A DNA stretch of 64,000 bases from a virus (Duplodnaviria; Caudoviricetes). Positions within the stretch are counted from its first letter, which is position 1, and each line of letters starts with the position of its first letter. This document shows, piece by piece, positions 5,332 through 35,473 of this stretch. Under the pieces are notes generated by a model. That model was not told the origin of the DNA, made no database searches, and saw only the letters and a list, made by a program, of their open reading frames with translations. A program made the position numbers and the translations under genes. The stretch spans positions 128,001 to 192,000 of the IMG/VR virus record IMGVR_UViG_3300046787_000508. One strand, written 5' to 3'.

Positions 5332-6015
5332 TTATTTCGACAAAAAACTATCAAGTTTCCCCATCAGTGATTTCATTTTGTCCATTTCTTGAGGTTGTTC
5401 AGCGATAGATTCTTGGAATTTATCTCTGTCACCTAAGTCTTGGAATACATATGCTCCAGGTGTAGATGGAGACGACACTAAATCAAAACAAACCAATTCA
5501 AAATCTTCTTGAACAATGTTTTGACCTTTAATGTTTTTTAAAGAACCCACACCACGTGATGATATACCCAAAGTTGCCCCGTTCATAATTAACATTGCCG
5601 CTTGGTCACCTTTAGTAGAAACAATACCCATCTTCTTCCAACCTGGGGAAGTGAATAGTTTAATTTTACCCATTAGGATTTTACCGTCCCACCAAGTTTC
5701 CAAAATAGAATGAGAAACCCTATCTAAATCAATTAGAGAAGATGAAGGGTGATTTAACTCATTTAGAGCCCCACCTTTTTGAATAAGTGTTTGGTATTTT
5801 TCGTTCTCTCTTTTTAAAAGAACCTCGGGATAGATTCTCCCGTTTTTATTTGGTGTGTCGTATTTTTGTAAAACAGCATAAAGGATAAGGTCTTGTGAAA
5901 AGTCCATATCCTTCATTTCTGCTATAATCTTCTTATTGTCGTCGGGAGAGACGTGTCCTGCGTCGTATTCGATTAGTATACCTTTTCCCGTCTCGTTTGC
6001 TCCTAGTACCTTCAT
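5332..6015 (-). CDS. gp21: Prohead protease, T4 gp21-like
   Basis: NKNGRIYP, ELNHP, GISSRGVGS, DLVSSPSTPGAY motifs. Confidence 0.95.
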   Translation of the reverse strand: MKVLGANETGKGILIEYDAGHVSPDDNKKIIAEMKDMDFSQDLILYAVLQKYDTPNKNGRIYPEVLLKRENEKYQTLIQKGGALNELNHPSSSLIDLDRVSHSILETWWDGKILMGKIKLFTSPGWKKMGIVSTKGDQAAMLIMNGATLGISSRGVGSLKNIKGQNIVQEDFELVCFDLVSSPSTPGAYVFQDLGDRDKFQESIAEQPQEMDKMKSLMGKLDSFLSK

Positions 6016-6053
6016 TTATAGTTTTTATACTATAAATACATCAATATCGAGAC

Positions 6054-6479
6054 TTAATCTTTGTTTTTGAAAAAATTAAATATATTTCTATCATTTAAAT
6101 CATTATTAATGATAGTATCACTTATTTCTTTCATAAGGTTTTTTATGTCTTTTGACTTAATATCAAAAGATTTTTGAACATAAAATGTTATCTCTAAATT
6201 CATAAACGATTTCTTATCTAATTTTATGCCTTTCGTTCTAACATCTAAATCTACAATACTTTCCCTTTTAAAGTGGTCGTTATTTAAATCGTAGATTCTC
6301 GATTTTATTGTTCTTCTTGTTTTTGAGATTACATATTCGTAATCTGTTGTGTCATTATTTGGTAATAACCATGAATTAAGTTTAAGGTAAATTGTTTTTA
6401 AATTTTTATAATCAACTGTACCGTATCCTATTTTAACATTCTGATGGAATCCCAAGGGTATAAATTTCCCTGTTTTCAT
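6054..6479 (-). CDS. Hypothetical protein (bS21-flanking)
   Basis: 141-aa ORF in the head operon. Confidence 0.7.
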   Translation of the reverse strand: MKTGKFIPLGFHQNVKIGYGTVDYKNLKTIYLKLNSWLLPNNDTTDYEYVISKTRRTIKSRIYDLNNDHFKRESIVDLDVRTKGIKLDKKSFMNLEITFYVQKSFDIKSKDIKNLMKEISDTIINNDLNDRNIFNFFKNKD

Positions 6480-13505: not shown

Positions 13506-14594
13506 TTATTTTATATATTTCCCTAACGCTTCTTTAACACTTTGGTTAATAACATCAGTTAATTCGTTAATGTCTAACTCTTTGATGTCATGTTGTTCAG
13601 GTTGACCCTCAGAATCACCAATTGGGTCTTCTTCGTTAATATCAAAAGTAAAATCAAAATCTCCGAAACCTTCTTCATCATCATGTGAGTTTTCACTATT
13701 TCTGAAGTATTCGTCTTCTTCACCACCCGGAGCTAATTCCATACCGAAATCATCATCTTCGTCAATTTCATCAAATGGGGTATTGATTAAAGCTTCTAAA
13801 GCGTCCATTGACATGTCGTTTTCTTCACCTAAATCAGTGTCTTCCCCTTCAGGTGCAACTTCTTCACCACCCATTTCAGGTTCTTCTCCTTCGTACTCAT
13901 CTTCGTCTTCAAATTGAGTAAGAATTTCTTCTTTATCAATTGAATCCAATTTGTCTAAATTCAAAGCTGAAACCACAGAATTGATAACATACTTAATGTC
14001 GTCACTTTCCATATCTTCCTGAGCTCCTCTTAATTTCTGACCTAACTTACCTGTTAGTTTTTGAATTAATTTAATTGGGTCATTATCTTCAGAATCATCT
14101 TGTGTTGGTTCTTCTTCAGGACCATCAATTGGTTCTTCTGCCGGTAAATCTTCTAAGCCTGCATCTGACATCGGTGCGTCATCCTCTGCAGGTGGTAATG
14201 CCGGCGGCATATCCGCAGGAGGTGCAATTGGAGCTTCAGTCGCTGGTTTGTTTTGTTTTAAAACATATTTTGTAGCTTCCTGTAATTCTTCTTGACCTTT
14301 TAAAAGTTCAAGTCTTTTCAGTGCTTCTGAATATGAAGAAAATCTGTTTTTATTTTTCATGAACATCCCACCAATGTAATCAAGGGAACTTTCGTTCAAA
14401 CCTCTCTTCACATAGTAGCTGTCCTTTTCTTTTACAATTCCGTAAACACCACCAATAGTGGATTCTTTAATAATCTCAGCACGTGGATTAGTCGGAACGT
14501 TTTTATTTTCATTAAAGTACGTGAGTTCAAGGATTCTCTTTAATTTATCCTCGCCTTTTAATTTCTCACTACCGATTGGTTTTAAATCTCCCAT
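13506..14594 (-). CDS. Acidic hypothetical protein (probable head-associated)
   Basis: 362-aa ORF with Pro/Glu/Asp-rich linkers. Confidence 0.7.
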   Translation of the reverse strand: MGDLKPIGSEKLKGEDKLKRILELTYFNENKNVPTNPRAEIIKESTIGGVYGIVKEKDSYYVKRGLNESSLDYIGGMFMKNKNRFSSYSEALKRLELLKGQEELQEATKYVLKQNKPATEAPIAPPADMPPALPPAEDDAPMSDAGLEDLPAEEPIDGPEEEPTQDDSEDNDPIKLIQKLTGKLGQKLRGAQEDMESDDIKYVINSVVSALNLDKLDSIDKEEILTQFEDEDEYEGEEPEMGGEEVAPEGEDTDLGEENDMSMDALEALINTPFDEIDEDDDFGMELAPGGEEDEYFRNSENSHDDEEGFGDFDFTFDINEEDPIGDSEGQPEQHDIKELDINELTDVINQSVKEALGKYIK

Positions 14595-17850: not shown

Positions 17851-17964
17851 ATATTTGACTTTTTAATAAAGTTATATATATTTATATCTCGGAGGTTCTC
17901 TTTGTCGATTACCTTTTCGTTTTTTTTTCATAAGTAAATGGGGTTGAACCCATTGAAAGACCTT

Positions 17965-17996
17965 AAACCCCGACAACCTGTTGGGGTTTTTTTATT
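17965..17996 (+). terminator. Intrinsic terminator
   Basis: aaaccccgac-aacct-gttggggttt plus T tract. Confidence 0.75.
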
Positions 17997-18037
17997 TAAA
18001 TTTGGTATTGTCAGAAATAAAGTGTATATTTACTATA

Positions 18038-18214
18038 ATGAAAAAATATATTTTAGTATTCGCGGTTATTGTATCGATTACAATGGCGGCATGTGGTTCT
18101 AAGTCTACCACAAACGAAGCAACAGACTCAACAGCTACTCAAGTTGATAGTACTGCAGTATCTGCGGACTCAACAACGGCTCAAATCCCTGCAGATTCAG
18201 CTGCAACAAAATAA
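18038..18214 (+). CDS. Small Ser/Thr/Ala-rich lipoprotein
   Basis: MKKYILVFAVIVSITMAAC lipobox; start moved from 17981 to 18038; followed by hairpin ggggc-ttcg-gccct. Confidence 0.75.
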   Translation: MKKYILVFAVIVSITMAACGSKSTTNEATDSTATQVDSTAVSADSTTAQIPADSAATK

Positions 18215-18216
18215 AA

Positions 18217-18426
18217 ATGGGGCTTCGGCCCTATTTTTCAATTTTTAACATTATGAGAGAAAATTCAAAAGAAAAGGTGCTATTTGTATTAAACATGGCA
18301 TTACTTGTTTTATTGTGGTTCACAATAAATGTTTATCGGACTAAATTATCTGTTATAGAAAAAAGAGTAACGGTTTTAGAACAAAAAATGAATTCACAAG
18401 AAACAAAGGTGGTAAACGAAAAATAA
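18217..18426 (+). CDS. Small membrane-anchored coiled-coil protein
   Basis: One hydrophobic helix; true start probably the downstream Met (MRENSK). Confidence 0.55.
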   Translation: MGLRPYFSIFNIMRENSKEKVLFVLNMALLVLLWFTINVYRTKLSVIEKRVTVLEQKMNSQETKVVNEK

Positions 18427-26155: not shown

Positions 26156-27812
26156 TAACTAAATTTATTTTTTCACCTTTAGAATCAATAGCATCCGATA
26201 GAACAAAATAAAACAATCCCGCAGTGTTTGTTAAATTTGTTTTAGGAGTAAAAATCAACTTATACGGTGTACCTGTTTTTATTCTTGCGGTTTTTAATTG
26301 GTCAATAGAACCAAATGTTAATCTACCATTATCATGAGTTGAGAAGTTTGTAATTGTACTTCCCGCATTGAAAACAACTTCATCTAATGTTAATTTTGAT
26401 TCGTCATAATTCATAATAACCTGTAAACCTGCCAAATCCGACTTAGTCAAATTCGTCAATAATACAACTTTCCCATTTTCAATTTTAGATACCACACTTA
26501 AAGTTGCGGTTTCTAAAGTTTTTGACGTATATGATAAAGTTCCGTATGTTGACATAGTTCTATTCATTGTAACCACATTAGTGTTTACCGAATTAACATA
26601 GTTTCCACTAGCAATTCTACTACTAATTTCACTTGGCGATGATGAGTGTGACCAATCTAAATCTCCACCCCAAGCGTAAACCATATCAACAACTTGAGTT
26701 GGAGTGGTTATGGTTACGTCATTTTTAACAATCCCATCTAACCAACCTTGGTTTAATAAACCACTATACCATCTTACTGAGGTTGATGTAGATTTAGGGA
26801 TAAATGCGTTTGTTGATACATCTATACCCATAACATGTGAAAACATATAATATGAGTCCGATTCACTAAATGCCGTTTTATTGAATGTTATTAAACCAAC
26901 TTTCTTTTCTAAAGCAGGATACGTAAAGAAATTAGTGGTACCACTTATATCAGTTTGTGAGATACCTAAAAATGCCTTATAAGCATCTGACACCGTTACA
27001 ATATTATTCATAAATGATTTCTGATTGGCAGGTGCAACAAATACACCGAATTCATCACCTACTTTTACTTCAGTAGTGAATAACGCCTCTCCTGTCCCAT
27101 CTAATTGTTTAACTGCAATAGGTTGTTGAGTCCAATCAATTTGTTTAGTTCCGTCTGTTTTTAATTTCATTAATTGAACACTATGGTCTGTTATGTTCGT
27201 ATATGAAGATGGAAATAAAACTCTAACTTTAAATTGGGAAGTGTTACCGACAACGTTAGTTAATGAAATCCCATCCGTTGATGTGGTAATTGGTGATATA
27301 TATAAACCCGCGGCATCAATTGAATATGATAAATCTAATTTATGAATATTATTATATGTGTTTTGGTCTTTTATAATATATTTTTGAGTTGCCAACAAAC
27401 CGTCAATTGAATTATCGGTTCTCTGTAATGTAATTTGACCAACATTCCAATCAGGGTTCGATAAATAATTCCAAGGAGTTGTTGTATATTGACCATACAA
27501 TGATTTAGAGTCAACATTCTGAGATGGTGTAAATGAATAATTATTCCACCCAGTATAATAAGTTTGAACTGATGACCCTTGATTATATGTGGTTGATAGG
27601 TAACTTAAAGCCTTATTATTATATTGATATCTTAACCAAAAGTAACGAGGTGTTGTAATTGGGTTTGAACCCTTGATTACGGTGTATTTTATAGTTAACG
27701 TATCACCAACCTTATATGAAGATTGTGTTACTACAGATTGATTGATTGTTAATTGTGCGAACGTTGAAAATGATATTAAAAACGTCCCAAGTAAAAATAA
27801 TATTTTTTTCAT
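26148..27812 (-). CDS. Secreted protein with cohesin-like and degenerate dockerin-like domains
   Basis: Signal peptide; VTVSDAYKAF shared with neighbour (VTISDVYLAF); C-terminal LAGLQVIMNYDESKL cohesin-like. Confidence 0.65.
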   Translation of the reverse strand: MKKILFLLGTFLISFSTFAQLTINQSVVTQSSYKVGDTLTIKYTVIKGSNPITTPRYFWLRYQYNNKALSYLSTTYNQGSSVQTYYTGWNNYSFTPSQNVDSKSLYGQYTTTPWNYLSNPDWNVGQITLQRTDNSIDGLLATQKYIIKDQNTYNNIHKLDLSYSIDAAGLYISPITTSTDGISLTNVVGNTSQFKVRVLFPSSYTNITDHSVQLMKLKTDGTKQIDWTQQPIAVKQLDGTGEALFTTEVKVGDEFGVFVAPANQKSFMNNIVTVSDAYKAFLGISQTDISGTTNFFTYPALEKKVGLITFNKTAFSESDSYYMFSHVMGIDVSTNAFIPKSTSTSVRWYSGLLNQGWLDGIVKNDVTITTPTQVVDMVYAWGGDLDWSHSSSPSEISSRIASGNYVNSVNTNVVTMNRTMSTYGTLSYTSKTLETATLSVVSKIENGKVVLLTNLTKSDLAGLQVIMNYDESKLTLDEVVFNAGSTITNFSTHDNGRLTFGSIDQLKTARIKTGTPYKLIFTPKTNLTNTAGLFYFVLSDAIDSKGEKINLVIE

Positions 27813-27813
27813 T

Positions 27814-28353
27814 TTATTTCGTGTTTGTGAATATTTTATTAATTAATGACACACATGTCTTTTTAATTGCAGAAGACAATGCTTGTTGGTTTACTTTATC
27901 ACTACCTGAATCGGTAATTAATGTTGATGTAGAAATTTCGCTACTTGATTCCTCAGCAACGGCATCCTTTATCTTTTTCCCATCTTTGTCAGTTAAAAAA
28001 CCACGCATAACAACTAATGTCTCCTCAACATCAGAATGGAATACGGAAACATTTCTTTTGGTTCTATTAACATCAAAGTAAAGTAGTTCAGCCCTAAAAA
28101 TGTAATCAGCGTTTTCAGGACTCTCAACAATAACATAATCTTTTTCTTGAAGAATTTCTTGAAAGATATTCTTTACCCCAAATCCAAGGTTACGATTATT
28201 GGTGAGTTTACCAATTTTAATTTTATTCTCAACACCTGAAACGTAGACTGATTTCGTCTCATCTATTGGTCTTAACACGTCTACGAAGAACGCAAACGTG
28301 AAAAGATACAATAAGGGCAGTAGAGATACATTGAGTCTCTTTATTTTTGTCAT
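27814..28353 (-). CDS. Envelope protein, CsgG/LptE-like alpha-beta fold
   Basis: N-terminal hydrophobic segment; LGFGVKNIFQEIL...ADYIFRAELL; start taken at 28353. Confidence 0.55.
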   Translation of the reverse strand: MTKIKRLNVSLLPLLYLFTFAFFVDVLRPIDETKSVYVSGVENKIKIGKLTNNRNLGFGVKNIFQEILQEKDYVIVESPENADYIFRAELLYFDVNRTKRNVSVFHSDVEETLVVMRGFLTDKDGKKIKDAVAEESSSEISTSTLITDSGSDKVNQQALSSAIKKTCVSLINKIFTNTK

Positions 28354-28417
28354 ACTAATAAATATCATCTATTAGTCAACTGATTATAAAAAAAAATAAA
28401 AATATTTTAATCTTTTC

Positions 28418-28448
28418 TTGTTTATTACAATACTTATTGTTACCTTTG
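28418..28448 (+). promoter_or_regulatory. Bacteroidota-type promoter for tRNA cluster 1 leader
   Basis: TTG (28418) - N20 - TACCTTTG (28441). Confidence 0.7.
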
Positions 28449-28477
28449 TACTATAAATCAAAGGAAAAAAAAATTCA

Positions 28478-28576
28478 ATGAGACAATTTACACATACAAT
28501 GTCGTTTACAATCTGTTCAAAATGGGCGGATGAGCGTTCTATGTCCTATAGTCTCGGAATTGATGAATTAAGTTAA
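28478..28576 (+). CDS. Putative attenuator leader peptide 1 (32 aa)
   Basis: MRQFTHTMSFTICSKWADERSMSYSLGIDELS; codons match cluster-1 tRNAs; 3' end complementary to the terminator. Confidence 0.75.
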   Translation: MRQFTHTMSFTICSKWADERSMSYSLGIDELS

Positions 28577-28598
28577 AAGTAAATTAACTAATAATATT

Positions 28599-28636
28599 AA
28601 AACCCTGAGACTTATAATCTCAGGGTTTTTTGTTTT
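28599..28636 (+). terminator. Attenuator terminator before tRNA cluster 1
   Basis: aaaaccctgaga-cttataa-tctcagggtttt plus T tract, abutting the first tRNA. Confidence 0.85.
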
Positions 28637-28706
28637 GGGCCTGATGTCAACGGCAGACCACCTGATTTGCAATCAGAGTGTTTGGGTTCGATTCCCACAG
28701 TGTCCA
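28637..28706 (+). tRNA. trnA: tRNA-Ala(UGC), atypical
   Basis: Loop tt-TGC-aa; G3:U70 pair; bulged acceptor stem. Confidence 0.7.
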
Positions 28707-28712
28707 CAAATT

Positions 28713-28784
28713 GGAATATAGCTCAGTTGGTTAGAGCGTCATCCTGATACGGTGAATGTCGATGGTTCGAGTCCATCTATTCCA
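28713..28784 (+). tRNA. trnI: tRNA-Ile(GAU)
   Basis: Cloverleaf; loop ct-GAT-ac. Confidence 0.9.
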
Positions 28785-28792
28785 ACAACAAT

Positions 28793-28865
28793 GGTGATGT
28801 AGCTCAGATGGTAGAGCGCTACCCTGAAGAGGTAGGCGTCGGCGGTTCGAGTCCGTCCATCACCA
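28793..28865 (+). tRNA. trnF: tRNA-Phe(GAA)
   Basis: Cloverleaf; ctacc-ctGAAga-ggtag. Confidence 0.92.
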
Positions 28866-28869
28866 CAAT

Positions 28870-28943
28870 GACCTCGTAGCTCAGTTGGTTAGAGCACCTC
28901 ACTTTTAATGAGGGAGTCAATGGTTCGAGTCCATTCGGGGTCA
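28870..28943 (+). tRNA. trnK: tRNA-Lys(UUU)
   Basis: cctca-ctTTTaa-tgagg. Confidence 0.92.
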
Positions 28944-28949
28944 CAATAT

Positions 28950-29021
28950 GCTGCGGTAGTGAAGAGGTTAACACGTATCACTTTCTATGATAAGGCCGGG
29001 GTTCGATTCCCCGTCGCAGTA
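28950..29021 (+). tRNA. tRNA with UUC anticodon (Glu), atypical U37
   Basis: tatca-ctTTCta-tgata; intact acceptor and T arms. Confidence 0.6.
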
Positions 29022-29025
29022 CAAA

Positions 29026-29098
29026 ATACAAATTAGGCTAAGGTAGCCAAATGGTCTCCAAAACCATAGGAGAAAGTTCGATTCTTTCAATTTGTGCA
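29026..29098 (+). tRNA. trnW: tRNA-Trp(CCA), weak first acceptor pair
   Basis: atggt-ctCCAaa-accat; T loop ttcgatt. Confidence 0.7.
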
Positions 29099-29152
29099 AA
29101 ATATAAATTATGAAAAAGAAATTTGATATGCATTAGGTTAAATTCCTAATAT

Positions 29153-29374
29153 ATGAAACCGTTCAAAAACAAAGTAAGTCAAACGACAACTCACAACAAA
29201 GAGTATAAAATAGTAACAAACGATAAATTCGACCCATATTGGGATGAAGGATATAATTTTTATCCGAGATATCGTAGAGGGTATAAGAACCCAAATAAAT
29301 GTATAATGAGTTTTCAAATTAGAATGTATCGAACTTGGAAACATAATAGAAAAACACAATGGAGAATAATGTAG
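29153..29374 (+). CDS. Small basic hypothetical protein
   Basis: 73 aa, ends RTWKHNRKTQWR. Confidence 0.6.
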   Translation: MKPFKNKVSQTTTHNKEYKIVTNDKFDPYWDEGYNFYPRYRRGYKNPNKCIMSFQIRMYRTWKHNRKTQWRIM

Positions 29375-29781
29375 AGGGATTTAAGTTAAAGGCCGAAGCT
29401 CAACTTATCCAAATCAGAGAGGAAAGAAAAAAGAGGGTAAAGGAGTATTGGGAAAATCTCCCCAAGATTGTTACTCCAAACGATGTCCCTGAATTACCAA
29501 GAGTAGATATTCAGGAATGGAAAGATTTCTACGTCCCAAAATTAATTGAGGCGGGAGCAATTGGTAAGGACGATTTGATTGAAGGTCAAATTTACATTGG
29601 TGAACATAGAAGAGCGAATGTTGCTAAATGGAACGGAAATGAATTCATTTACAATAGAGAGAAATTTGGAAACGTTTATGAAGATAAATGTAACCACTTT
29701 GAAGATGATGATGGGTTCGCTTTATTTGTTCCAATTAGATTTGGTACTGAGGAAGAATATAAGCAAAATTGTTTACAATAA
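29359..29781 (+). CDS. Hypothetical protein
   Basis: 140-aa ORF within the tRNA cluster. Confidence 0.7.
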   Translation: MENNVEGFKLKAEAQLIQIREERKKRVKEYWENLPKIVTPNDVPELPRVDIQEWKDFYVPKLIEAGAIGKDDLIEGQIYIGEHRRANVAKWNGNEFIYNREKFGNVYEDKCNHFEDDDGFALFVPIRFGTEEEYKQNCLQ

Positions 29782-29789
29782 ACAATAAA

Positions 29790-29863
29790 GGGTCTCTTGG
29801 TGTAACGGATAACACGGAACACTACGAATGTTTTGTTAAAGGTTCGAATCCTTTAGAGACCTC
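29790..29863 (+). tRNA. trnR: tRNA-Arg(ACG)
   Basis: gaaca-ctACGaa-tgttt. Confidence 0.88.
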
Positions 29864-29869
29864 AAATAA

Positions 29870-29941
29870 GTCAGGTTGACCGAGTTGGTAAGGTGAAGGT
29901 CTGCAAAACCTTTTACGTTGGTTCGAATCCAACACTTGACT
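29870..29941 (+). tRNA. trnC: tRNA-Cys(GCA)
   Basis: aaggt-ctGCAaa-acctt; U73. Confidence 0.9.
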
Positions 29942-29950
29942 CTAATATAT

Positions 29951-30024
29951 GGTGATTGTAGCTGAAATGGTAAAGCACCTGATTGTGGTTCAGGCGATTG
30001 TGGGTTCGATTCCCACCTTTCACA
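29951..30024 (+). tRNA. trnH: tRNA-His(GUG)
   Basis: cctga-ttGTGgt-tcagg; G-1 present. Confidence 0.85.
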
Positions 30025-30031
30025 CAAAAAT

Positions 30032-30115
30032 TGCGGGATGTCAGAAGATGGTATCTGGGGAGTCTCATAAGCTCTTGCGTAAGCCTCGTGGGTTCGAGTC
30101 CCACTCCCGCAACCA
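30032..30115 (+). tRNA. tRNA-CAU (probable elongator Met) with 12-nt variable arm
   Basis: ggagt-ctCATaa-gctct; encoded CCA end. Confidence 0.75.
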
Positions 30116-30150
30116 TTTACAATGATATTTATATTCGGTAAATTATTACT

Positions 30151-30969
30151 ATGGAGTATAAATGTCAATATTGTAATGAAATGTTTGTTTTTGAAAAAAA
30201 ACAACAAGCGGGAGCTCACGTAACTAACTGTTCTATGAATCCCAAAAAAAAATTAATGACCGAGAAAAGGTTATTAAGTAAGGACCAAGTAAAAATAGAT
30301 AGAGTATTAAATTGTGAAAGATGTAATCAGGAATATACAATTAATATAACCAACCATCTATTCTCAATTGGTGATTATAAAAAACATTGTTCAAGAAAAT
30401 GTGCAAACAGTAGAACACAAAAAGAAGAAACAAAAAATAAAATATCGGAATCGGTTAAAATGTGGTTTGAAAAACCTGAAGTTAAAATAAAATTATTAAA
30501 AGATAAATCAAAATATAGAAGAAATAGAAAATGTCCATCTTGTAATGATGATTTTTTAACATTAAAATCGTCAAAACAAAAATATTGTTCATTGAAATGT
30601 GCAGGTTCCGCCGGAGGTAAAAACTCTAAACAGGGGAAAAGGAGTTTAAATGAAATTATGTTTTTTGAATTATGTAGTGAACATTTTGAAGGTGTAATGT
30701 CAAACGAAAACGCGTTTAATGGTTGGGACGCTGATGTTATTCTACCAAATGAAAAAATTGCAGTTTTATGGAATGGAATTTGGCACTATAAAAAAATAAT
30801 GAAAAAACATTCATTAACCCAAGTTCAAAATAGGGATATGATTAAAATAAAGGAAATAAAAAAATTAGGGTTTAAACCATATATAATAAAAGATATGGGT
30901 TCACATAATCCAGAGTTTGTGAATGAACAATTTATTATTTTTAAAAAATATTTAGAAAATATTTTGTAA
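30151..30969 (+). CDS. Zn-finger plus Vsr/EDxHD-like endonuclease (putative free-standing homing endonuclease)
   Basis: Several CxxC and CSxxC motifs; DADVILPNEKIAVLWNGIWHY...NRDMIK nuclease-like C-terminus. Confidence 0.7.
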   Translation: MEYKCQYCNEMFVFEKKQQAGAHVTNCSMNPKKKLMTEKRLLSKDQVKIDRVLNCERCNQEYTINITNHLFSIGDYKKHCSRKCANSRTQKEETKNKISESVKMWFEKPEVKIKLLKDKSKYRRNRKCPSCNDDFLTLKSSKQKYCSLKCAGSAGGKNSKQGKRSLNEIMFFELCSEHFEGVMSNENAFNGWDADVILPNEKIAVLWNGIWHYKKIMKKHSLTQVQNRDMIKIKEIKKLGFKPYIIKDMGSHNPEFVNEQFIIFKKYLENIL

Positions 30970-31018
30970 ATTAAAAAATAAATATTACATTTGTACAAGA
31001 ATTAAATGTTCATTGAAA
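30963..31018 (+). promoter_or_regulatory. Internal Bacteroidota-type promoter plus boxA-like site
   Basis: TTTG (30963) - N19 - TACATTTG (30986), then TGTTCATTGAAA. Confidence 0.65.
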
Positions 31019-31024
31019 ATATAT

Positions 31025-31096
31025 CGCAGGGTAGAGCAGTGGTAGCTCGGGAGGCTCATAACCTCTAGGTCGTCAGTTCGAATCTGGCCCCTGCAA
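31025..31096 (+). tRNA. trnfM: Initiator tRNA-fMet(CAU)
   Basis: C1:A72 mismatch; ggagg-ctCATaa-cctct. Confidence 0.88.
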
Positions 31097-31145
31097 CAAA
31101 ACATAAGATTAATTACCTTATGTATGGAAGGTTCGAAACTTCCGA

Positions 31146-31259
31146 TTGATTATGGTGTAAAGGTGCACGGCAGAACGGAGTAGGAATACGAAAAGCATTG
31201 AGCTTTCGTCGGTTCCGAAAGGGGAAACAGGATTATGGTTCGAATCCATTTTAGTCAAC
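31146..31259 (+). ncRNA. tRNA-like RNA with an expanded branched domain in place of the anticodon arm
   Basis: Acceptor ttgatta/tagtcaa, D arm and T loop ttcgaat; ~65-nt insert. Confidence 0.6.
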
Positions 31260-31260
31260 T

Positions 31261-31388
31261 ATTGTAATTGACATAACGTCCTTAGCGGGAGAGCTTAGTA
31301 TATTACGGATAATCCTTCGGTAATTTACGATATGGTAACGTAGAAACAAGAGTAAGAGGATTTGAGTTCTACCTATGTTAGTTACAAT
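31261..31388 (+). ncRNA. Candidate structured RNA
   Basis: 15-bp closing stem 31261-31275/31374-31388. Confidence 0.5.
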
Positions 31389-31392
31389 TTTT

Positions 31393-31465
31393 GGGATTGA
31401 GGTCAAACGGTTAAGATGTCGCCCTGTCACGGCGCACGGAGCGGGTTCAACTCCCGTCAGTCCCG
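31393..31465 (+). tRNA. trnD: tRNA-Asp(GUC)
   Basis: cgcc-ctGTCac-ggcg. Confidence 0.9.
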
Positions 31466-31673
31466 CAAATGAGTAAGAGATACTCAATGATTTGGCATCG
31501 TTCGAAATAATGATGTAGTTGTTTCCTTCCACGATTTTATAGAGGGGGTCTCGGAATATGGTCGTAACAAAACTACCGAGTATGTTTGACGTTTTAAGCG
31601 GTAAGACGCGATGGGTTTTTCAATACGAAAAACTGTGAATATCTACCTCGAAATAATCTCATCGGGGACAATT

Positions 31674-31759
31674 GGAAGGATGGCAGAGTTGGTCGATTGT
31701 ACCTGACTTGAAATCAGGCGTACTGCAAGGTACCGTGGGTTCGAATCCTACTCCTTCCG
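31674..31759 (+). tRNA. trnS: tRNA-Ser(UGA)
   Basis: cctga-ctTGAaa-tcagg; long variable arm; G73. Confidence 0.92.
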
Positions 31760-32033
31760 CAATTCGACGACATTTAGGGTGATTTAGTATCTAGATTACT
31801 CTTTGTAACGATTACGGAAGTACACATTTATTTGTGTTAAACGTTAAGTTCGACAGGTAGAAACTAAGTGGTTCGGAATTTGACTGAAACAAGGTGACTT
31901 GGTCTTTGAAGTATTCAAACGATTTATCGTTGTAGGTACTGAATAACAAGAAGATAAACTAAGAACATCATCGTATGAAGTTTACCTAGAGAAATTTATA
32001 AAACGATGACTGCTCGGAAAGACGGGCTCATTT

Positions 32034-32145
32034 AATTAGGTGGCGGAATTGGTAAACGTAGAGATGTTGAAGTTTAGGTATCACTATGATTAAGTTCAGA
32101 AACTTGACCTAATGCTCTAAACAGGTTCGAATCCTGTCCTGATTA
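32034..32145 (+). ncRNA. tRNA-like RNA with expanded branched anticodon domain
   Basis: Acceptor aattagg/cctgatt; Leu-like D arm; T arm acagg-ttcgaat-cctgt. Confidence 0.6.
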
Positions 32146-32335
32146 CAGGTCGTCTTTTTATATTGCTCCCGTTTGTGAGTTAACTTTATAGACGTAAAAC
32201 TTAAAGTAATGAAAATCATTCCCTTCTGGAGTTGACGGTAAAACTATCCAGTCCTGTTCCTTACCGAAGGAGTTTCCGGACGTTAATATGAAACTCAAAC
32301 GACAGTGAAAAGTAGGGACTTATAAGTTTTACCTG
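32146..32335 (+). ncRNA. Candidate pseudoknotted RNA
   Basis: Crossing long-range helices 32171-81/32292-300 and 32194-203/32323-32. Confidence 0.5.
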
Positions 32336-32350
32336 AACTTGTCCCGAATT

Positions 32351-32422
32351 GGCCCGTTCGACTATCGGTTAGGTCGTCAGGTTTTCATCCTGGAAAGAGG
32401 GGTTCGACTCCCCTACGGGCTA
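32351..32422 (+). tRNA. trnE: tRNA-Glu(UUC)
   Basis: tcagg-ttTTCat-cctgg. Confidence 0.92.
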
Positions 32423-32436
32423 CTAAATTTAATGAA

Positions 32437-32628
32437 ATGAAAAAGTTAATTTTATTATTGGTTGTGATGTTTAGTATGAGTGGTTGTTATACCACATATA
32501 GAACGCCACAAAGACACAATGGACTTAGACCTTTATGGTATAATCCAAGAACTCATCAAGGACCGTTTTATAATCATCCAAGACCAAGAAACATGAGACC
32601 ACATTTCAATCCAAGAAATCGTTGGTAA
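32437..32628 (+). CDS. Small Arg/Pro-rich lipoprotein
   Basis: MKKLILLLVVMFSMSGC lipobox. Confidence 0.7.
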   Translation: MKKLILLLVVMFSMSGCYTTYRTPQRHNGLRPLWYNPRTHQGPFYNHPRPRNMRPHFNPRNRW

Positions 32629-32669
32629 CATTTGACTTTTTAATATTTTATTAGTATATTTATATTATT

Positions 32670-32999
32670 ATGAAACAACATTAGACACATAGACTTATAA
32701 CCGTAACGAGAAAAGATATTTCTCCGGGTTATCAAATTGCACAATCGGGGCATGCAATTGCACAATTCTTTTTAGACCATCCCGATTTATCTAAAAAATG
32801 GAACAACAACTATCTTATTTCGTTGTCCATAGATTCCGAACAAAAATTACATAAACTTTTTACCGACTTAATTGAGTGTGGAATATCCGTATCCGTGTTT
32901 AACGAACCAGATATTGATAATCAACTAACGTCACTGTGCTTCCTCGAAACGGGAGATACAAAAAAATACACACATAAACTTAAATTATCTTTAAATTAA
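32670..32999 (+). CDS. Peptidyl-tRNA hydrolase 2 (Pth2)-like protein with in-frame TAG at codon 5
   Basis: ATG AAA CAA CAT TAG ACA CAT AGA CTT ATA...; translation MKQH*THRLITVTRKDISPGYQIAQSGHAIAQF...FNEPDIDNQLTSLCF; missed by the ORF track. Confidence 0.75.
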
Positions 33000-33108
33000 G
33001 AAACCATGAAATAGATACGACCACCGAACTAAACTTAATAAAGTAAAAAATGCTCGATAAAGGCATCAACTTTATCATTAAACAATAACTTTATTAAATT
33101 TAAACAAA

Positions 33109-33447
33109 ATGAAAAAATACACAAATAACCCAACACAAATGATTAAATGTACATTCTCTAACTCAGTTCATAAAATATTAGAACCTAATATCGATATTAA
33201 AAATCGTGAAAGATGGAGAAAAGAAAATCGTGACAAATACAATTTCACTGATGAACAAAAAATAGAAATGTTCGATAAGATAATGAAAATACATAAAGAA
33301 ACATCTAATGAATTAACATCTTATCAATTTGATAGGAGAGACAAAAAAAGGTTACACGCTGACCGTGTCGCTCGAGGTTATAAATTTAAAACAAAAACCA
33401 AAAAGGAAGAATATGAAAAAAATATTCAGAAAGATTTGGTATTATAA
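33109..33447 (+). CDS. Hypothetical basic protein
   Basis: 112-aa ORF. Confidence 0.6.
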   Translation: MKKYTNNPTQMIKCTFSNSVHKILEPNIDIKNRERWRKENRDKYNFTDEQKIEMFDKIMKIHKETSNELTSYQFDRRDKKRLHADRVARGYKFKTKTKKEEYEKNIQKDLVL

Positions 33448-33466
33448 AAAATAAACAATACATTTG
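33435..33466 (+). promoter_or_regulatory. Bacteroidota-type promoter upstream of the suppressor tRNA
   Basis: TTTG (33435) - N20 - TACATTTG (33459). Confidence 0.7.
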
Positions 33467-33575
33467 TATTATAATTTACAACCAAAGAGACATTGACTTA
33501 GTAACCCAGTGGAGGCACACATAAACTGTATTAGTGAAAAGTTGAGGTGATAGACCACCATGTTGTAAATTATTT

Positions 33576-33647
33576 GTCCTGTTAGTGTAGTGGTAGCACG
33601 AAGGTCTCTAAAACCTTTAAGGGTCGGTTCGAGTCCGACACGGGGCA
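33576..33647 (+). tRNA. Amber suppressor tRNA(CUA)
   Basis: Acceptor gtcctgt/acggggc; aaggt-ctCTAaa-acctt; T arm gtcgg-ttcgagt-ccgac. Confidence 0.88.
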
Positions 33648-33671
33648 CAAAAATAAAAAAAATAAAAAATA

Positions 33672-33703
33672 TTTGTTTACTATTGATATTTTTTGTAAAT
33701 TTG
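33672..33703 (+). promoter_or_regulatory. Bacteroidota-type promoter for tRNA cluster 2 leader
   Basis: TTTG (33672) - N20 - TAAATTTG (33696). Confidence 0.7.
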
Positions 33704-33720
33704 CATATACTTATTAAACG

Positions 33721-33828
33721 ATGAAGAATATAAATAACATATTGACGAGTACGAGACCCCTTAACAATGGTAATGGGTATGGTGTGCAACCGTTAAGTTA
33801 CTTATGTTCGGATATTATTGAGATGTAA
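33721..33828 (+). CDS. Putative attenuator leader peptide 2 (35 aa)
   Basis: MKNINNILTSTRPLNNGNGYGVQPLSYLCSDIIEM; codons 3-28 all read by cluster-2 tRNAs. Confidence 0.78.
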   Translation: MKNINNILTSTRPLNNGNGYGVQPLSYLCSDIIEM

Positions 33829-33850
33829 ATAAATTTTACAATTATAAATC

Positions 33851-33890
33851 AACCCGAACAAATTAAAAAAATGTTCGGGTTTTTTGTTTT
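33851..33890 (+). terminator. Attenuator terminator before tRNA cluster 2
   Basis: aacccgaaca-loop-tgttcgggtt plus T tract. Confidence 0.85.
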
Positions 33891-33933
33891 AATTAAATTT
33901 TATTATTACATTTGTAACGTAGTTCATTGACAT
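33883..33933 (+). promoter_or_regulatory. Promoter-like site overlapping the terminator plus boxA-like site
   Basis: TTTG (33883) - N20 - TACATTTG (33907); AGTTCATTGACA at 33921. Confidence 0.55.
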
Positions 33934-33947
33934 TCTGAGAAAGTAAC

Positions 33948-34032
33948 GCCCGGGTGGTGTAATGGTAGCCACGAGGGACTTAAAATCCCTTGGACAGAAA
34001 CGTTCGTGCCGGTTCGAGTCCGGCCCCGGGTA
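33948..34032 (+). tRNA. trnL: tRNA-Leu(UAA)
   Basis: aggga-ctTAAaa-tccct; long variable arm. Confidence 0.92.
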
Positions 34033-34080
34033 CGAAGCTTAGTTCACACTATACTCGCGAAGAGGAGGAAGTGTATTTTT

Positions 34081-34154
34081 GGTTCCATAGCTCAATTGGA
34101 TAGAGCAACACACTTCTAATGTGTAGGTTTCAGGTTCGACTCCTGATGGAATCA
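34081..34154 (+). tRNA. trnR: tRNA-Arg(UCU)
   Basis: acaca-ctTCTaa-tgtgt. Confidence 0.92.
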
Positions 34155-34212
34155 CACCGGTGGTAGTTTTGAGGTTGACGAATTCTACATAAAAAAAATA
34201 ATTCATCCACTA

Positions 34213-34285
34213 CTAGGTGTGGGAAAGTTGGTAATCCGCGTGGTTTGGGACCACGAGACCGTAGGTTCGAGCCCTACCACTTAGA
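34213..34285 (+). tRNA. trnP: tRNA-Pro(UGG)
   Basis: cgtgg-ttTGGga-ccacg. Confidence 0.92.
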
Positions 34286-34363
34286 CGAGATGGTGATAAC
34301 CAATCAGCAGCCAAAATGTATACAGAAATGCTGGAGGTGACAAACGGGGAGAGACCCGTACAT

Positions 34364-34443
34364 ACCCGAGTGGTGGAATGGTATACACAGCGGTCTTAGA
34401 AACCGTGTCGAAAGGCGTGTCGGTTCGAGTCCGACCTTGGGTA
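34364..34443 (+). tRNA. trnL: tRNA-Leu(UAG)
   Basis: gcggt-ctTAGaa-accgt; variable arm. Confidence 0.92.
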
Positions 34444-34451
34444 CGAAAATT

Positions 34452-34523
34452 GGCCTTGTAGCTCAGTGGTAGAGCAGTTGACTGTTAATCAACTGGTCGT
34501 TGGTTCGAATCCAACCGGGGCCT
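34452..34523 (+). tRNA. trnN: tRNA-Asn(GUU)
   Basis: gttga-ctGTTaa-tcaac. Confidence 0.92.
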
Positions 34524-34594
34524 CAAAAAGTTTAACCATATAAGGTTGAATAAGATGACAGACGAAAGTTATCTCTTGAGGGTAAAATGAAAAG

Positions 34595-34655
34595 ATTGGT
34601 AGAGTGGTACTACGGGGTGACGGCCCAAACGCAGGTTCGATTCCTGTATCGAAGT
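34595..34655 (+). pseudogene. Degenerate tRNA-like remnant
   Basis: D-like tggtagagtggta and T arm gcagg-ttcgatt-cctgt, but no 7-nt anticodon loop. Confidence 0.4.
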
Positions 34656-34717
34656 AATTTGAGAGTAAAGGTAAAAGGTATTAATAGCGGTCTAAAAACT
34701 GGGTTAAACTTTGATAT

Positions 34718-34799
34718 GGGAGCATCGCATAGCGGCAATTGCAGAAGACTGTAAATCTTCCCTCTTTCGAGTTCGTAGGTTCGAGTCCTACTGCTCCCA
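34718..34799 (+). tRNA. trnY: tRNA-Tyr(GUA)
   Basis: gaaga-ctGTAaa-tcttc; variable arm. Confidence 0.92.
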
Positions 34800-34813
34800 C
34801 AAAAAAACAAATT

Positions 34814-35467
34814 ATGGCAACATTAGAAACACAGTACAAGGATTTTTTGGTTAAAAACCCAAGTTCAACGTTTACATTTGAAGAATGGAAAAACGACCAC
34901 GGGGTTAAGATTGCAAATGCAGTTGAACGTTCTTCCTCACTTAAGAAAATTATTGATGAGATTAGAACACCCGAATACAAGGAAAGGAGATTAAAAGAAA
35001 AAAAAGAAAGTAAAGAAAGATTAACCGCCGAGTATCAGTTTGGATATTATGTTGGTGAAGAAATTGTGACAAGGCATTTACCAACGATTACAACAGATAT
35101 GATAAAGTCTCGTAATCAAATTAAAGTTTCGGATGAAGACACTGAAGAAAACAAACGTATACATGACCTATGGTGGGAGAGTGGAAAATATGGTTCCAAT
35201 CCTGACGATGTGGTTAATAAAGAAACTTGGAAATTATATCGACAACATATGGTTATGTTGGAAAAGAAGTATCTCCCAAATCCTTTAAAATGTAATATTG
35301 ATTTATTAAATATTCGTGACGAGAAAGATTTTAAAGATGGGTTAATCCATTCGTTGTGGAATTGTGATATGTGTACTTACAGTTTAAAACCTGAAGACAT
35401 TAAGATATACGATGATGAAGATATGTGGTTTACCATCATTGAATTTATCCTAAGAGACGAAGAATAA
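34814..35467 (+). CDS. Hypothetical protein
   Basis: Start moved to MATLETQ (34814) because the ORF-track start lies inside tRNA-Tyr. Confidence 0.75.
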   Translation: MATLETQYKDFLVKNPSSTFTFEEWKNDHGVKIANAVERSSSLKKIIDEIRTPEYKERRLKEKKESKERLTAEYQFGYYVGEEIVTRHLPTITTDMIKSRNQIKVSDEDTEENKRIHDLWWESGKYGSNPDDVVNKETWKLYRQHMVMLEKKYLPNPLKCNIDLLNIRDEKDFKDGLIHSLWNCDMCTYSLKPEDIKIYDDEDMWFTIIEFILRDEE

Positions 35468-35473
35468 TAGTTT

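Follow-up and report, generated by a model that had tools for sequence, protein, structure and literature searches.

A probable codon-matched transcription attenuator in front of a tRNA gene cluster of a very large uncultured phage

We analyzed a stretch of viral DNA of 64,000 nucleotides (bases 128001–192000 of the 202,894-base IMG/VR virus record IMGVR_UViG_3300046787_000508; hereafter the window, whose numbering is used throughout) and describe here a short leader unit at positions 28418–28636. In this unit a promoter, an open reading frame (ORF) of 32 codons and an intrinsic terminator follow one another, and the terminator is joined without a gap to a tRNA-Ala gene, the first gene of a tRNA cluster. 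The central codons of the ORF are read by the tRNAs encoded in this downstream cluster, and the 3′ part of the ORF is able to pair with the 5′ arm of the terminator. Judged from its sequence and that of its relatives, the unit is probably a ribosome-mediated (leader-peptide), codon-matched transcription attenuator which gates a phage tRNA operon. All features described lie on the plus strand unless indicated otherwise.

The record is estimated to be 60% complete and, given its length at this completeness, its source is therefore a very large uncultured phage. It has a G+C content of about 33% and carries 26–27 tRNA genes and one transfer-messenger RNA (tmRNA). No close cultured phage relative was found in a distant blastn search with the region 27800–30200, which matched tRNA genes only. 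The gene upstream of the leader unit (27814–28368) is encoded on the minus strand, leaving 28369–28636 as a divergent intergenic region, and transcripts from farther upstream can therefore not reach the tRNA genes. A search with the protein of this divergent neighbour yielded 26 related viral loci (43–85% identity), 15 of which show a tRNA cluster of the Ile/Phe/Lys type, and a small ORF is present at the matching place in all 15. A search with an alignment of leader peptides yielded 41 loci. Both searches combined gave about 45 related viral contigs with 29 distinct leader sequences (alignment A2); single relatives are referred to by labels of the form L0xx.

Codon content and conservation of the leader

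The tRNA genes are arranged in two blocks which divide the genetic code between them and overlap at AUG alone. Cluster 1 comprises, in this order, the genes for Ala, Ile-GAU, Phe, Lys, Glu, Trp, Arg-ACG, Cys, His, Met (two genes), Asp, Ser-UGA, and Glu, and cluster 2 those for Leu-UAA, Arg-UCU, Pro, Leu-UAG, Asn, Tyr, a tRNA with the anticodon CAU, Val, Thr, Gly, Gln, and Ser-GCU. We assigned each leader codon to the cluster able to read it, applying standard wobble and allowing a tRNA with U34 to read the whole four-codon box. Chance levels were determined by Monte Carlo simulation with this genome's own codon usage, and the 472 ATG ORFs of 25–40 codons in the 203-kb record served as an empirical background.

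The ORF in front of cluster 1 (leader 1, 32 codons plus stop codon), which an earlier note on this DNA had placed at 28478–28576, is confirmed there and encodes MRQFTHTMSFTICSKWADERSMSYSLGIDELS. Its codons 12–23 (28511–28546) form an uninterrupted run of 12 codons, all of which are read by cluster-1 tRNAs. The earlier note had also claimed that the leader covers all cluster-1 specificities and uses all four TCN codons, and this proved correct, with 12/12 species represented. The complete set of specificities is contained within codons 4–20, with one or two codons per species. By chance a run of at least 12 codons is expected with p = 8e-4, full species coverage with p = 6e-4, and both together with p = 6.5e-6; leader 1 alone among the 472 small ORFs combines a run of at least 12 codons with full cluster-1 coverage. 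The matched runs of this leader and of a second leader in front of cluster 2 (leader 2, see below) moreover split the Ser and Arg codon boxes correctly, with TCN and CGT in leader 1 and AGT, AGA, and the Ile codon ATA in leader 2.

The conserved core of leader 1 spans codons 6–20 (28493–28537, HTMSFTICSKWADER) and contains 13 different amino acids, among them those of all 12 cluster-1 specificities. The only unmatched core codons in the window are the Thr codons ACA, and the Thr tRNA is located in cluster 1 in many relatives. Across lineages the unmatched codons at core positions 6–20 are again for Thr only, and they are found solely where the Thr tRNA sits in cluster 2. The match is cleaner in relatives, for instance in L076 with a run of 20 codons and 13/13 species and in L068 with a run of 24 codons and 14/14 species. 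The supposed lack of Asn, Pro, and Val in leader 1 is true for the window but not general, as Val and sometimes Asn occur in the leaders of relatives, mostly outside the core.

Start codon, reading frame, length (29–34 codons), and terminator are kept in 29/29 distinct homologues. L055 has the only GTG among these 29, which takes the place of ATG and is still a start codon. The core H-T-M-S-F-[TI]-I-C-S-K-W-A-[DE] is nearly invariant across the homologues. The alternative codons observed in a 12-codon core are synonymous in 8 and nonsynonymous in 8 cases, whereas the possible single-base changes are 21 and 80, respectively, and synonymous changes are thus enriched (8/16 seen vs. 21/101 possible). 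In chemical terms the amino acid replacements seen (M to T, K or E; T to M or I; S to T) are not conservative, and all of them introduce amino acids with tRNAs in the downstream cluster; one lineage exchanges T7 M8 for M7 T8. Such a pattern is expected if selection acts on the codon content and not on the fold of a peptide. The 3′ third of the leader is not conserved as a peptide (SLGIDELS, SRGVL, SRGFDCNIG, and others), and no family match was obtained in PHROG and Pfam for either leader peptide. We conclude that the leader is a conserved ORF which, judged from its substitution pattern, is evidently translated.

A decayed copy of the leader is found in L058 and L059 at about 6001–6170. The ORF core is retained, the hairpin has no U-tract, and a different tRNA comes next; this copy may be a natural variant which has lost attenuation.

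Terminator and antiterminator

The intrinsic terminator (28599–28636) consists of a 5′ arm (28599–28610), a loop (28611–28617), a 3′ arm (28618–28629), and a U-tract (28630–28636). The hairpin (28599–28629) has a stem of 12 bp with 5 G–C pairs and a loop of 7 nt and is followed by TTTTTTGTTTT; its calculated energy is −16.7 kcal/mol (z −5.2). Position 28637, the base after the U-tract, is the first base of tRNA-Ala, so that a 12-bp terminator does abut this gene, as had been noted, and there is no space for another promoter between the two. RNAalifold retains 10 terminator pairs, 3 of which have changed on both sides. In the region 28300–36600 there are only two strong terminators on the plus strand, one behind each leader, and their tails are identical.

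The 5′ strand of the antiterminator, AGUCUCGG (28550–28557), lies within codons 25–27 and pairs with 28605–28612. A bulged pairing of 11 bp between 28547–28557 and 28605–28616 had been proposed before; the 8-bp core with one G–U pair holds, and the full 11 bp are only a possible extension of it. The best duplex of the terminator 5′ arm with the ORF is located at ORF nucleotides 70–85 in 29/29 sequences. The mean duplex energy is −15.3 kcal/mol for cognate arms, −12.1 kcal/mol for noncognate arms, and −8.9 ± 2.3 kcal/mol for shuffled ORFs. The MAFFT registers of the pairing strand and of the 5′ arm differed between groups of sequences, and for the covariation analysis of the antiterminator the strands were anchored by script. 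The anchored pair tables reveal changes on both sides at 4 antiterminator pairs. Compensatory changes are seen, for example, when L024 (GUCUCAGGGUU with AACCCUGAGAC) is compared with L023 (GUCUCGAGGUU with AACCUCGGGAC), or L047 (UCCCGAGGU with ACCUCGGGA) with L061 (UCUCGAGGU with ACCUCGAGA). Pairing was possible in 146/176 cells as compared to 137 ± 2 after permutation of the strands among the sequences, and 0/20000 permutations reached the observed value, a significance which is inflated by the relatedness of the sequences. An RNA motif resembling GUCYCRRGG is always present in the 3′ third of the ORF, in a reading frame that differs by lineage. Failure of the antiterminator pairing to be conserved in homologues had been named beforehand as a finding that would speak against an attenuator; the pairing is kept and covaries, at the same place in 29/29 sequences.

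In the window the antiterminator forms the base of an extended stem–loop (28550–28612), and the fold of 28545–28613 has an energy of −13.9 kcal/mol (z −4.4). The apical part of this structure is a small hairpin which includes the stop codon (28571–28589, AGUUAA...UUAACU), and similar hairpins are visible in relatives. A further hairpin, P1, is located inside the ORF (28511–28531, AUCUGUUCA-AAA-UGGGCGGAU; −8.3 kcal/mol, z −3.7). It is retained by RNAalifold, with three pairs changed on both sides in a distant group, and, speculatively, it may serve as a pause or timing hairpin. The start region pairs with 28550–28555 in the minimum free energy fold of the window, and this pairing is not conserved in relatives.

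The second leader, tRNA gene location and promoters

The sister unit at 33673–33885 is composed of a promoter (33673–33703), an ORF (leader 2, 33721–33828) with an antiterminator strand at 33805–33811, and a terminator (33851–33881) followed by a U-tract. That both leaders follow the same logic had been suggested earlier and is borne out by an unrelated peptide with the same architecture and a codon match of its own. The run of cluster-2 codons in leader 2 comprises 21 codons with 12/12 species (p = 2e-5 for the run, p = 4e-6 for run and coverage), or 26 codons provided that the CAU tRNA of cluster 2 reads ATA. This tRNA (35474–35548) is the orthologue of one located beside tRNA-Ile(UAU) in relatives and presumably resembles tRNA-Ile2; with this identity it would be the cognate tRNA of the ATA codons in leader 2. 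Leader 2 is the only one among the 472 small ORFs with a cluster-2 run of at least 15 codons, and as stated in the earlier note it contains no Ala, Phe, Trp, or His. The two leaders divide the complete tRNA repertoire between them, and this family would sense 12–14 species.

The relatives differ in the location of the tRNA-Val and tRNA-Thr genes. In one lineage (L047, L048, L050–54, L061, L063, and L067–69) both genes are located in cluster 1. The leader 1 core of this lineage reads ...KWAEV... and thus includes Val, and its leader 2 core, YIQQPLNNPLSGNGRGIYL, has Ile-ATA where other lineages carry Val and is devoid of Thr in 4/6 variants. In the clade of the window, L029 and L030 have tRNA-Thr in cluster 1 and a leader 2 core without Thr; in the window itself tRNA-Thr belongs to cluster 2, and the leader 2 core carries two Thr codons. 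We built a tree from the Leu-Arg-Pro tRNA genes and their spacer, on which the Thr gene switches its location at least 4 times. The Thr count of leader 2 follows the location of the Thr gene in 23/23 rows and in 4/4 phylogenetically independent pairs. The codon content of the leaders shifts with the relocated Val and Thr tRNA genes, mainly in leader 2 and for Val also in leader 1. A strict correlation between Val codons in leader 1 and a Val tRNA in cluster 1 was considered as well and had to be rejected; it holds in the 'AEV' lineage and fails in L039/L049, L045, L055, and L057.

The promoter of leader 1 (28418–28448) was identified by a regular expression scan and consists of TTG (28418–28420), a spacer of 20 nt, and TACCTTTG (28441–28448). 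The promoter noted earlier is thus indeed present; its motif is of the Bacteroidota type and not a −35/−10 pair. TTG-N19-TAnnTTTG is the published consensus of Bacteroidota housekeeping promoters, and by comparison with it 28418–28448 is predicted to act as promoter with a transcript start at about 28455–28458. In the alignment TTG and TAnnTTTG stand at fixed spacing in nearly all homologous leaders. The A-rich, unstructured 5′ untranslated region (28456–28477) ends in a TTCAATG start context, which is conserved in the alignments. Further copies of the spaced motif are found before the initiator-like tRNA-Met (30964–30993), a tRNA with the anticodon CUA (33436–33466), leader 2, cluster 2 (33884–33914), and the tmRNA (43022–43052). 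As a general promoter of the phage the motif was rejected: there are 43 copies compared to 25 expected, only 6 of them 10–80 nt before an ORF of at least 60 amino acids, and the motif is concentrated in the tRNA/tmRNA region.

The first gene behind the leader, tRNA-Ala(UGC) (28637–28706), scores 30 bits with the Rfam tRNA model, is found by aragorn at a lowered threshold (-ps85), and is conserved in relatives. The following genes at 28712–30115 (Ile-GAU, Phe, Lys, Glu, Trp, two ORFs, Arg-ACG, Cys, His, and Met) are not preceded by a strong consensus promoter. At 29736 there is a bare TAGATTTG with no TTG at the proper distance, which may be a weak internal promoter before Arg. Because the genes from Ala to Trp, and probably those from Arg to Met, have no other strong promoter, their synthesis needs read-through of the terminator. 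The second half of cluster 1 (initiator-like Met, Asp, Ser-UGA, and Glu; 31025–32423) is placed behind the promoter at 30964–30993, a promoter seen before the initiator-like Met in many relatives, and leader 1 can therefore modulate but not exclusively gate this half. In a similar manner the promoter of cluster 2 begins in the U-tract of terminator 2, and leader 2 therefore adds to, and does not solely gate, the transcription of cluster 2. In the stretch 33884–33947 a conserved block resembling GTTCTTTGACAT is present between this promoter and tRNA-Leu(UAA).

Several further features of the tRNA region were recorded. The cluster-1 tRNA with a CAU anticodon at 30032–30115 is 84 nt long and has an unusual D region. 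An ORF of 272 amino acids within the tRNA array (30151–30969) has a weak match to an HNH endonuclease PHROG (E = 1e-5), and among relatives the distance between tRNA sub-blocks varies by about a kilobase, in agreement with mobile insertions. The tRNA with the anticodon CUA (33576–33648) is of the amber suppressor type, lies between the clusters, and was not seen at this position in the relatives inspected. A recoding of TAG, which this tRNA could suggest, was rejected; TAG ends 13/133 long ORFs, and we found no sign of recoding. In a few long ORFs, reading through a single TAG would lengthen the frame. The phage tmRNA (43073–43482) scores 81 bits in Rfam, and in L070 a tmRNA is located at 17877–18273. 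L070 also contains a GOLLD RNA (Rfam RF02032, 314 bits) at 13658–14066, just 3′ of tRNA cluster 2; in the window there is no GOLLD hit at the gathering score. An Rfam hit at 39315–39440 (126 nt, 45 bits) covers the tRNA model from end to end and has no aragorn call; it points to a tRNA-like gene into which about 55 nt have been inserted.

Mechanism, rival explanations and known systems

In the mechanism which we propose, the host RNA polymerase would start at 28418–28448 and a ribosome would translate the 32-codon leader. With fast decoding the ribosome would arrive at codons 24–32 and the stop codon and cover or unwind 28550–28557, allowing the terminator hairpin to form and transcription to end in the U-tract before tRNA-Ala. 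If scarcity of a charged tRNA slows the decoding of any of the regulatory codons in the core, the ribosome would lag behind and 28550–28557 could pair with 28605–28612 to form the base of the extended stem–loop; the 5′ arm of the terminator would then be sequestered and the polymerase would read into the tRNA genes. A ribosome with its A site at codon 20 or before should not reach ORF nucleotide 72, and a stall there should therefore leave 28550–28557 free. The outcome would be a feedback loop producing the tRNA set on demand, and more of these tRNAs are probably made only upon slow decoding of their codons. A more far-reaching idea, which we put forward tentatively as a possibility, is that the two leaders form a decoding-capacity sensor of the phage, each spelling half of the repertoire, so that depletion of any single host tRNA, be it through anticodon nucleases of the host or through decay induced by the phage, for instance, would stall the ribosome and switch on the matching operon.

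The attenuator reading can be confronted with the sequence data in four respects, namely the pairing, the conservation of the ORF, the codon match, and the second leader, and all four turned out in its favour. A number of observations nevertheless weigh against it. In leader 1, 11/31 codons are of the cluster-2 type (AGA, CAA, ACA three times, TAT, AGT twice, CTC, GGA, and TTA), most of them outside the core. The regulatory codons occur only once or twice each, whereas classical attenuators use tandem runs, and the sensitivity may therefore be low. The antiterminator of the window (−13.9 kcal/mol) is weaker than the terminator (−16.7 kcal/mol), although the antiterminator of relatives is much stronger, as in L068 with −25.1 kcal/mol compared to −16.4 kcal/mol for its terminator. 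The equilibrium fold of the full leader favours the terminator nearly irrespective of the ribosome position that is masked. We therefore rejected equilibrium folding with a masked ribosome footprint as a model of the switch, and the attenuator model consequently depends on folding kinetics; in folds of a transcript that ends at the terminator loop, before the 3′ arm exists, the antiterminator forms in 8/9 sequences tested. Transcription of the tRNA genes is partly ungated owing to the internal promoter before the initiator Met and the promoter after terminator 2. As to the co-evolution, a sign test with 4 independent pairs cannot reach 0.05 (p = 0.125), leader 1 of L039 and L049 contains Val while an Rfam check of their available cluster showed no Val tRNA, and L061, L063, and L076 retain one Thr codon in leader 2.

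Some of these points could also be accommodated by a translation-dependent switch which reports general capacity, be it ribosome availability, elongation rate, or the stage of infection, and for which codon composition is secondary. One or two codons per tRNA species, the 11/31 codons from the other cluster, and the unmatched codons of several relatives speak for such a switch. Yet such a switch needs neither a run of 12–24 codons limited to the downstream tRNAs (p from 1e-3 to 1e-5) nor the full coverage, the split of the Ser and Arg boxes, or codons that track the relocation of tRNA genes, and we regard it as unlikely. We also considered that the ORF could encode a functional microprotein followed by a somewhat leaky terminator, with the tRNAs being made by constitutive read-through, since the core HTMSF[TI]ICSKWA is conserved in amino acids and residue order across lineages. 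The C-terminal third, however, is conserved as an RNA motif in shifted frames which covaries with the terminator and not as a peptide, the core replacements stay within the tRNA set without being physicochemically conservative, the joint probability of the codon match is 6.5e-6, and no PHROG or Pfam match exists, all of which makes a microprotein quite improbable.

Another possibility is an arrest peptide of the TnaC or SecM type, in which case the nascent chain would stall the ribosome in response to a small molecule or factor and the arrest would control the terminator. H6, K15, W16, and M22 are invariant in an alignment of 10 peptides and the order of the core residues is well kept, which speaks for an arrest peptide. 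The distant group L023–L025, in contrast, alters most core residues while the composition stays within the tRNA set, and leader 2 combines an unrelated peptide with the same architecture and its own codon match; we therefore consider an arrest peptide very unlikely. That a chance ORF merely precedes an ordinary terminator or an RNA-processing hairpin, possibly as part of a small noncoding RNA, would agree with the weak sub-threshold matches to Rfam small RNA (sRNA) families, which are the only such matches and are driven by the terminator. The ORF is, however, conserved with a pattern of synonymous changes and is unique among the 472 small ORFs, and the alternative helices covary, so that this explanation can hardly be maintained.

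If the codon-matched attenuator is real, a virus would be able to gauge decoding capacity separately for each codon and to produce each tRNA set when it is needed. This would offer a handle on the question why phages carry tRNAs, that is as compensation for codon usage or as replacement for degraded or cleaved host tRNAs. The leader would also represent a compact natural element for reading out the supply of many tRNA species together, and through its co-evolution with tRNA gene order such elements could be found and validated in viral metagenomes by computation alone. Should the sensor idea hold true as well, phage tRNA arrays would be inducible countermeasures rather than constitutive supplements, which might constitute a general design principle in large phages.

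tRNA genes are a textbook case of control at the promoter level (growth-rate and stringent control), and in a full-text literature search we found no account of tRNA genes being regulated by a leader peptide. Phage T5, which has small ORFs in its tRNA region, was examined as a precedent and rejected; these ORFs look like ordinary small proteins and show no codon match, and the annotation lists no terminator ahead of the tRNAs. None of the Rfam leader families (His, Phe, Trp, Thr, and Leu), T-box, or sRNA models matched at the gathering threshold. The leader scores 18.2 bits with His_leader (RF00514) and 14.8 bits with Phe_leader (RF01859) compared to gathering scores of 49 and 55, and is therefore not a member of these families.

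In T-box riboswitches the state of a tRNA likewise decides between terminator and antiterminator in a 5′ leader. They are untranslated, bind the uncharged tRNA directly through a specifier codon and the T-box sequence, and control synthetase and amino acid genes, whereas in the present leader a translated ORF would be the sensor and no T-box match is found. Closer in principle is pheM, which attenuates pheST and thus likewise subjects the translation apparatus to leader-peptide attenuation, with feedback from decoding to supply; it differs in regulating a synthetase instead of tRNA genes and in sensing a single amino acid. With trpL, hisL, pheL, and leuL the leader shares the logic of a mutually exclusive terminator and antiterminator read out by the position of the ribosome, but these leaders contain tandem codon runs and the leader described here has none, nor could a clear 1:2 anti-antiterminator be established for it from the folds and RNAalifold.

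The most similar systems are ilvL (of ilvGMEDA) and thrL, the multivalent attenuators of enterobacteria. As in the phage unit, a short translated leader (also 32 codons in ilvL) carries the codons of several amino acids spread out over its length, the antiterminator overlaps the 3′ part of the leader and the 5′ arm of the terminator, and the terminator precedes the regulated genes. They differ in that they belong to Proteobacteria, control biosynthetic enzymes, and use repeated codons for 2–3 amino acids, whereas the phage-borne leader has a promoter of the Bacteroidota type, tRNA genes as its target, and codons for 12–14 species which appear once or twice each; a relationship in sequence or through Rfam does not exist. 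What is new is hence the tRNA genes as target, the design with one or two codons for each of 12–14 tRNAs, and the phage setting, while the logic is that of classical attenuation.

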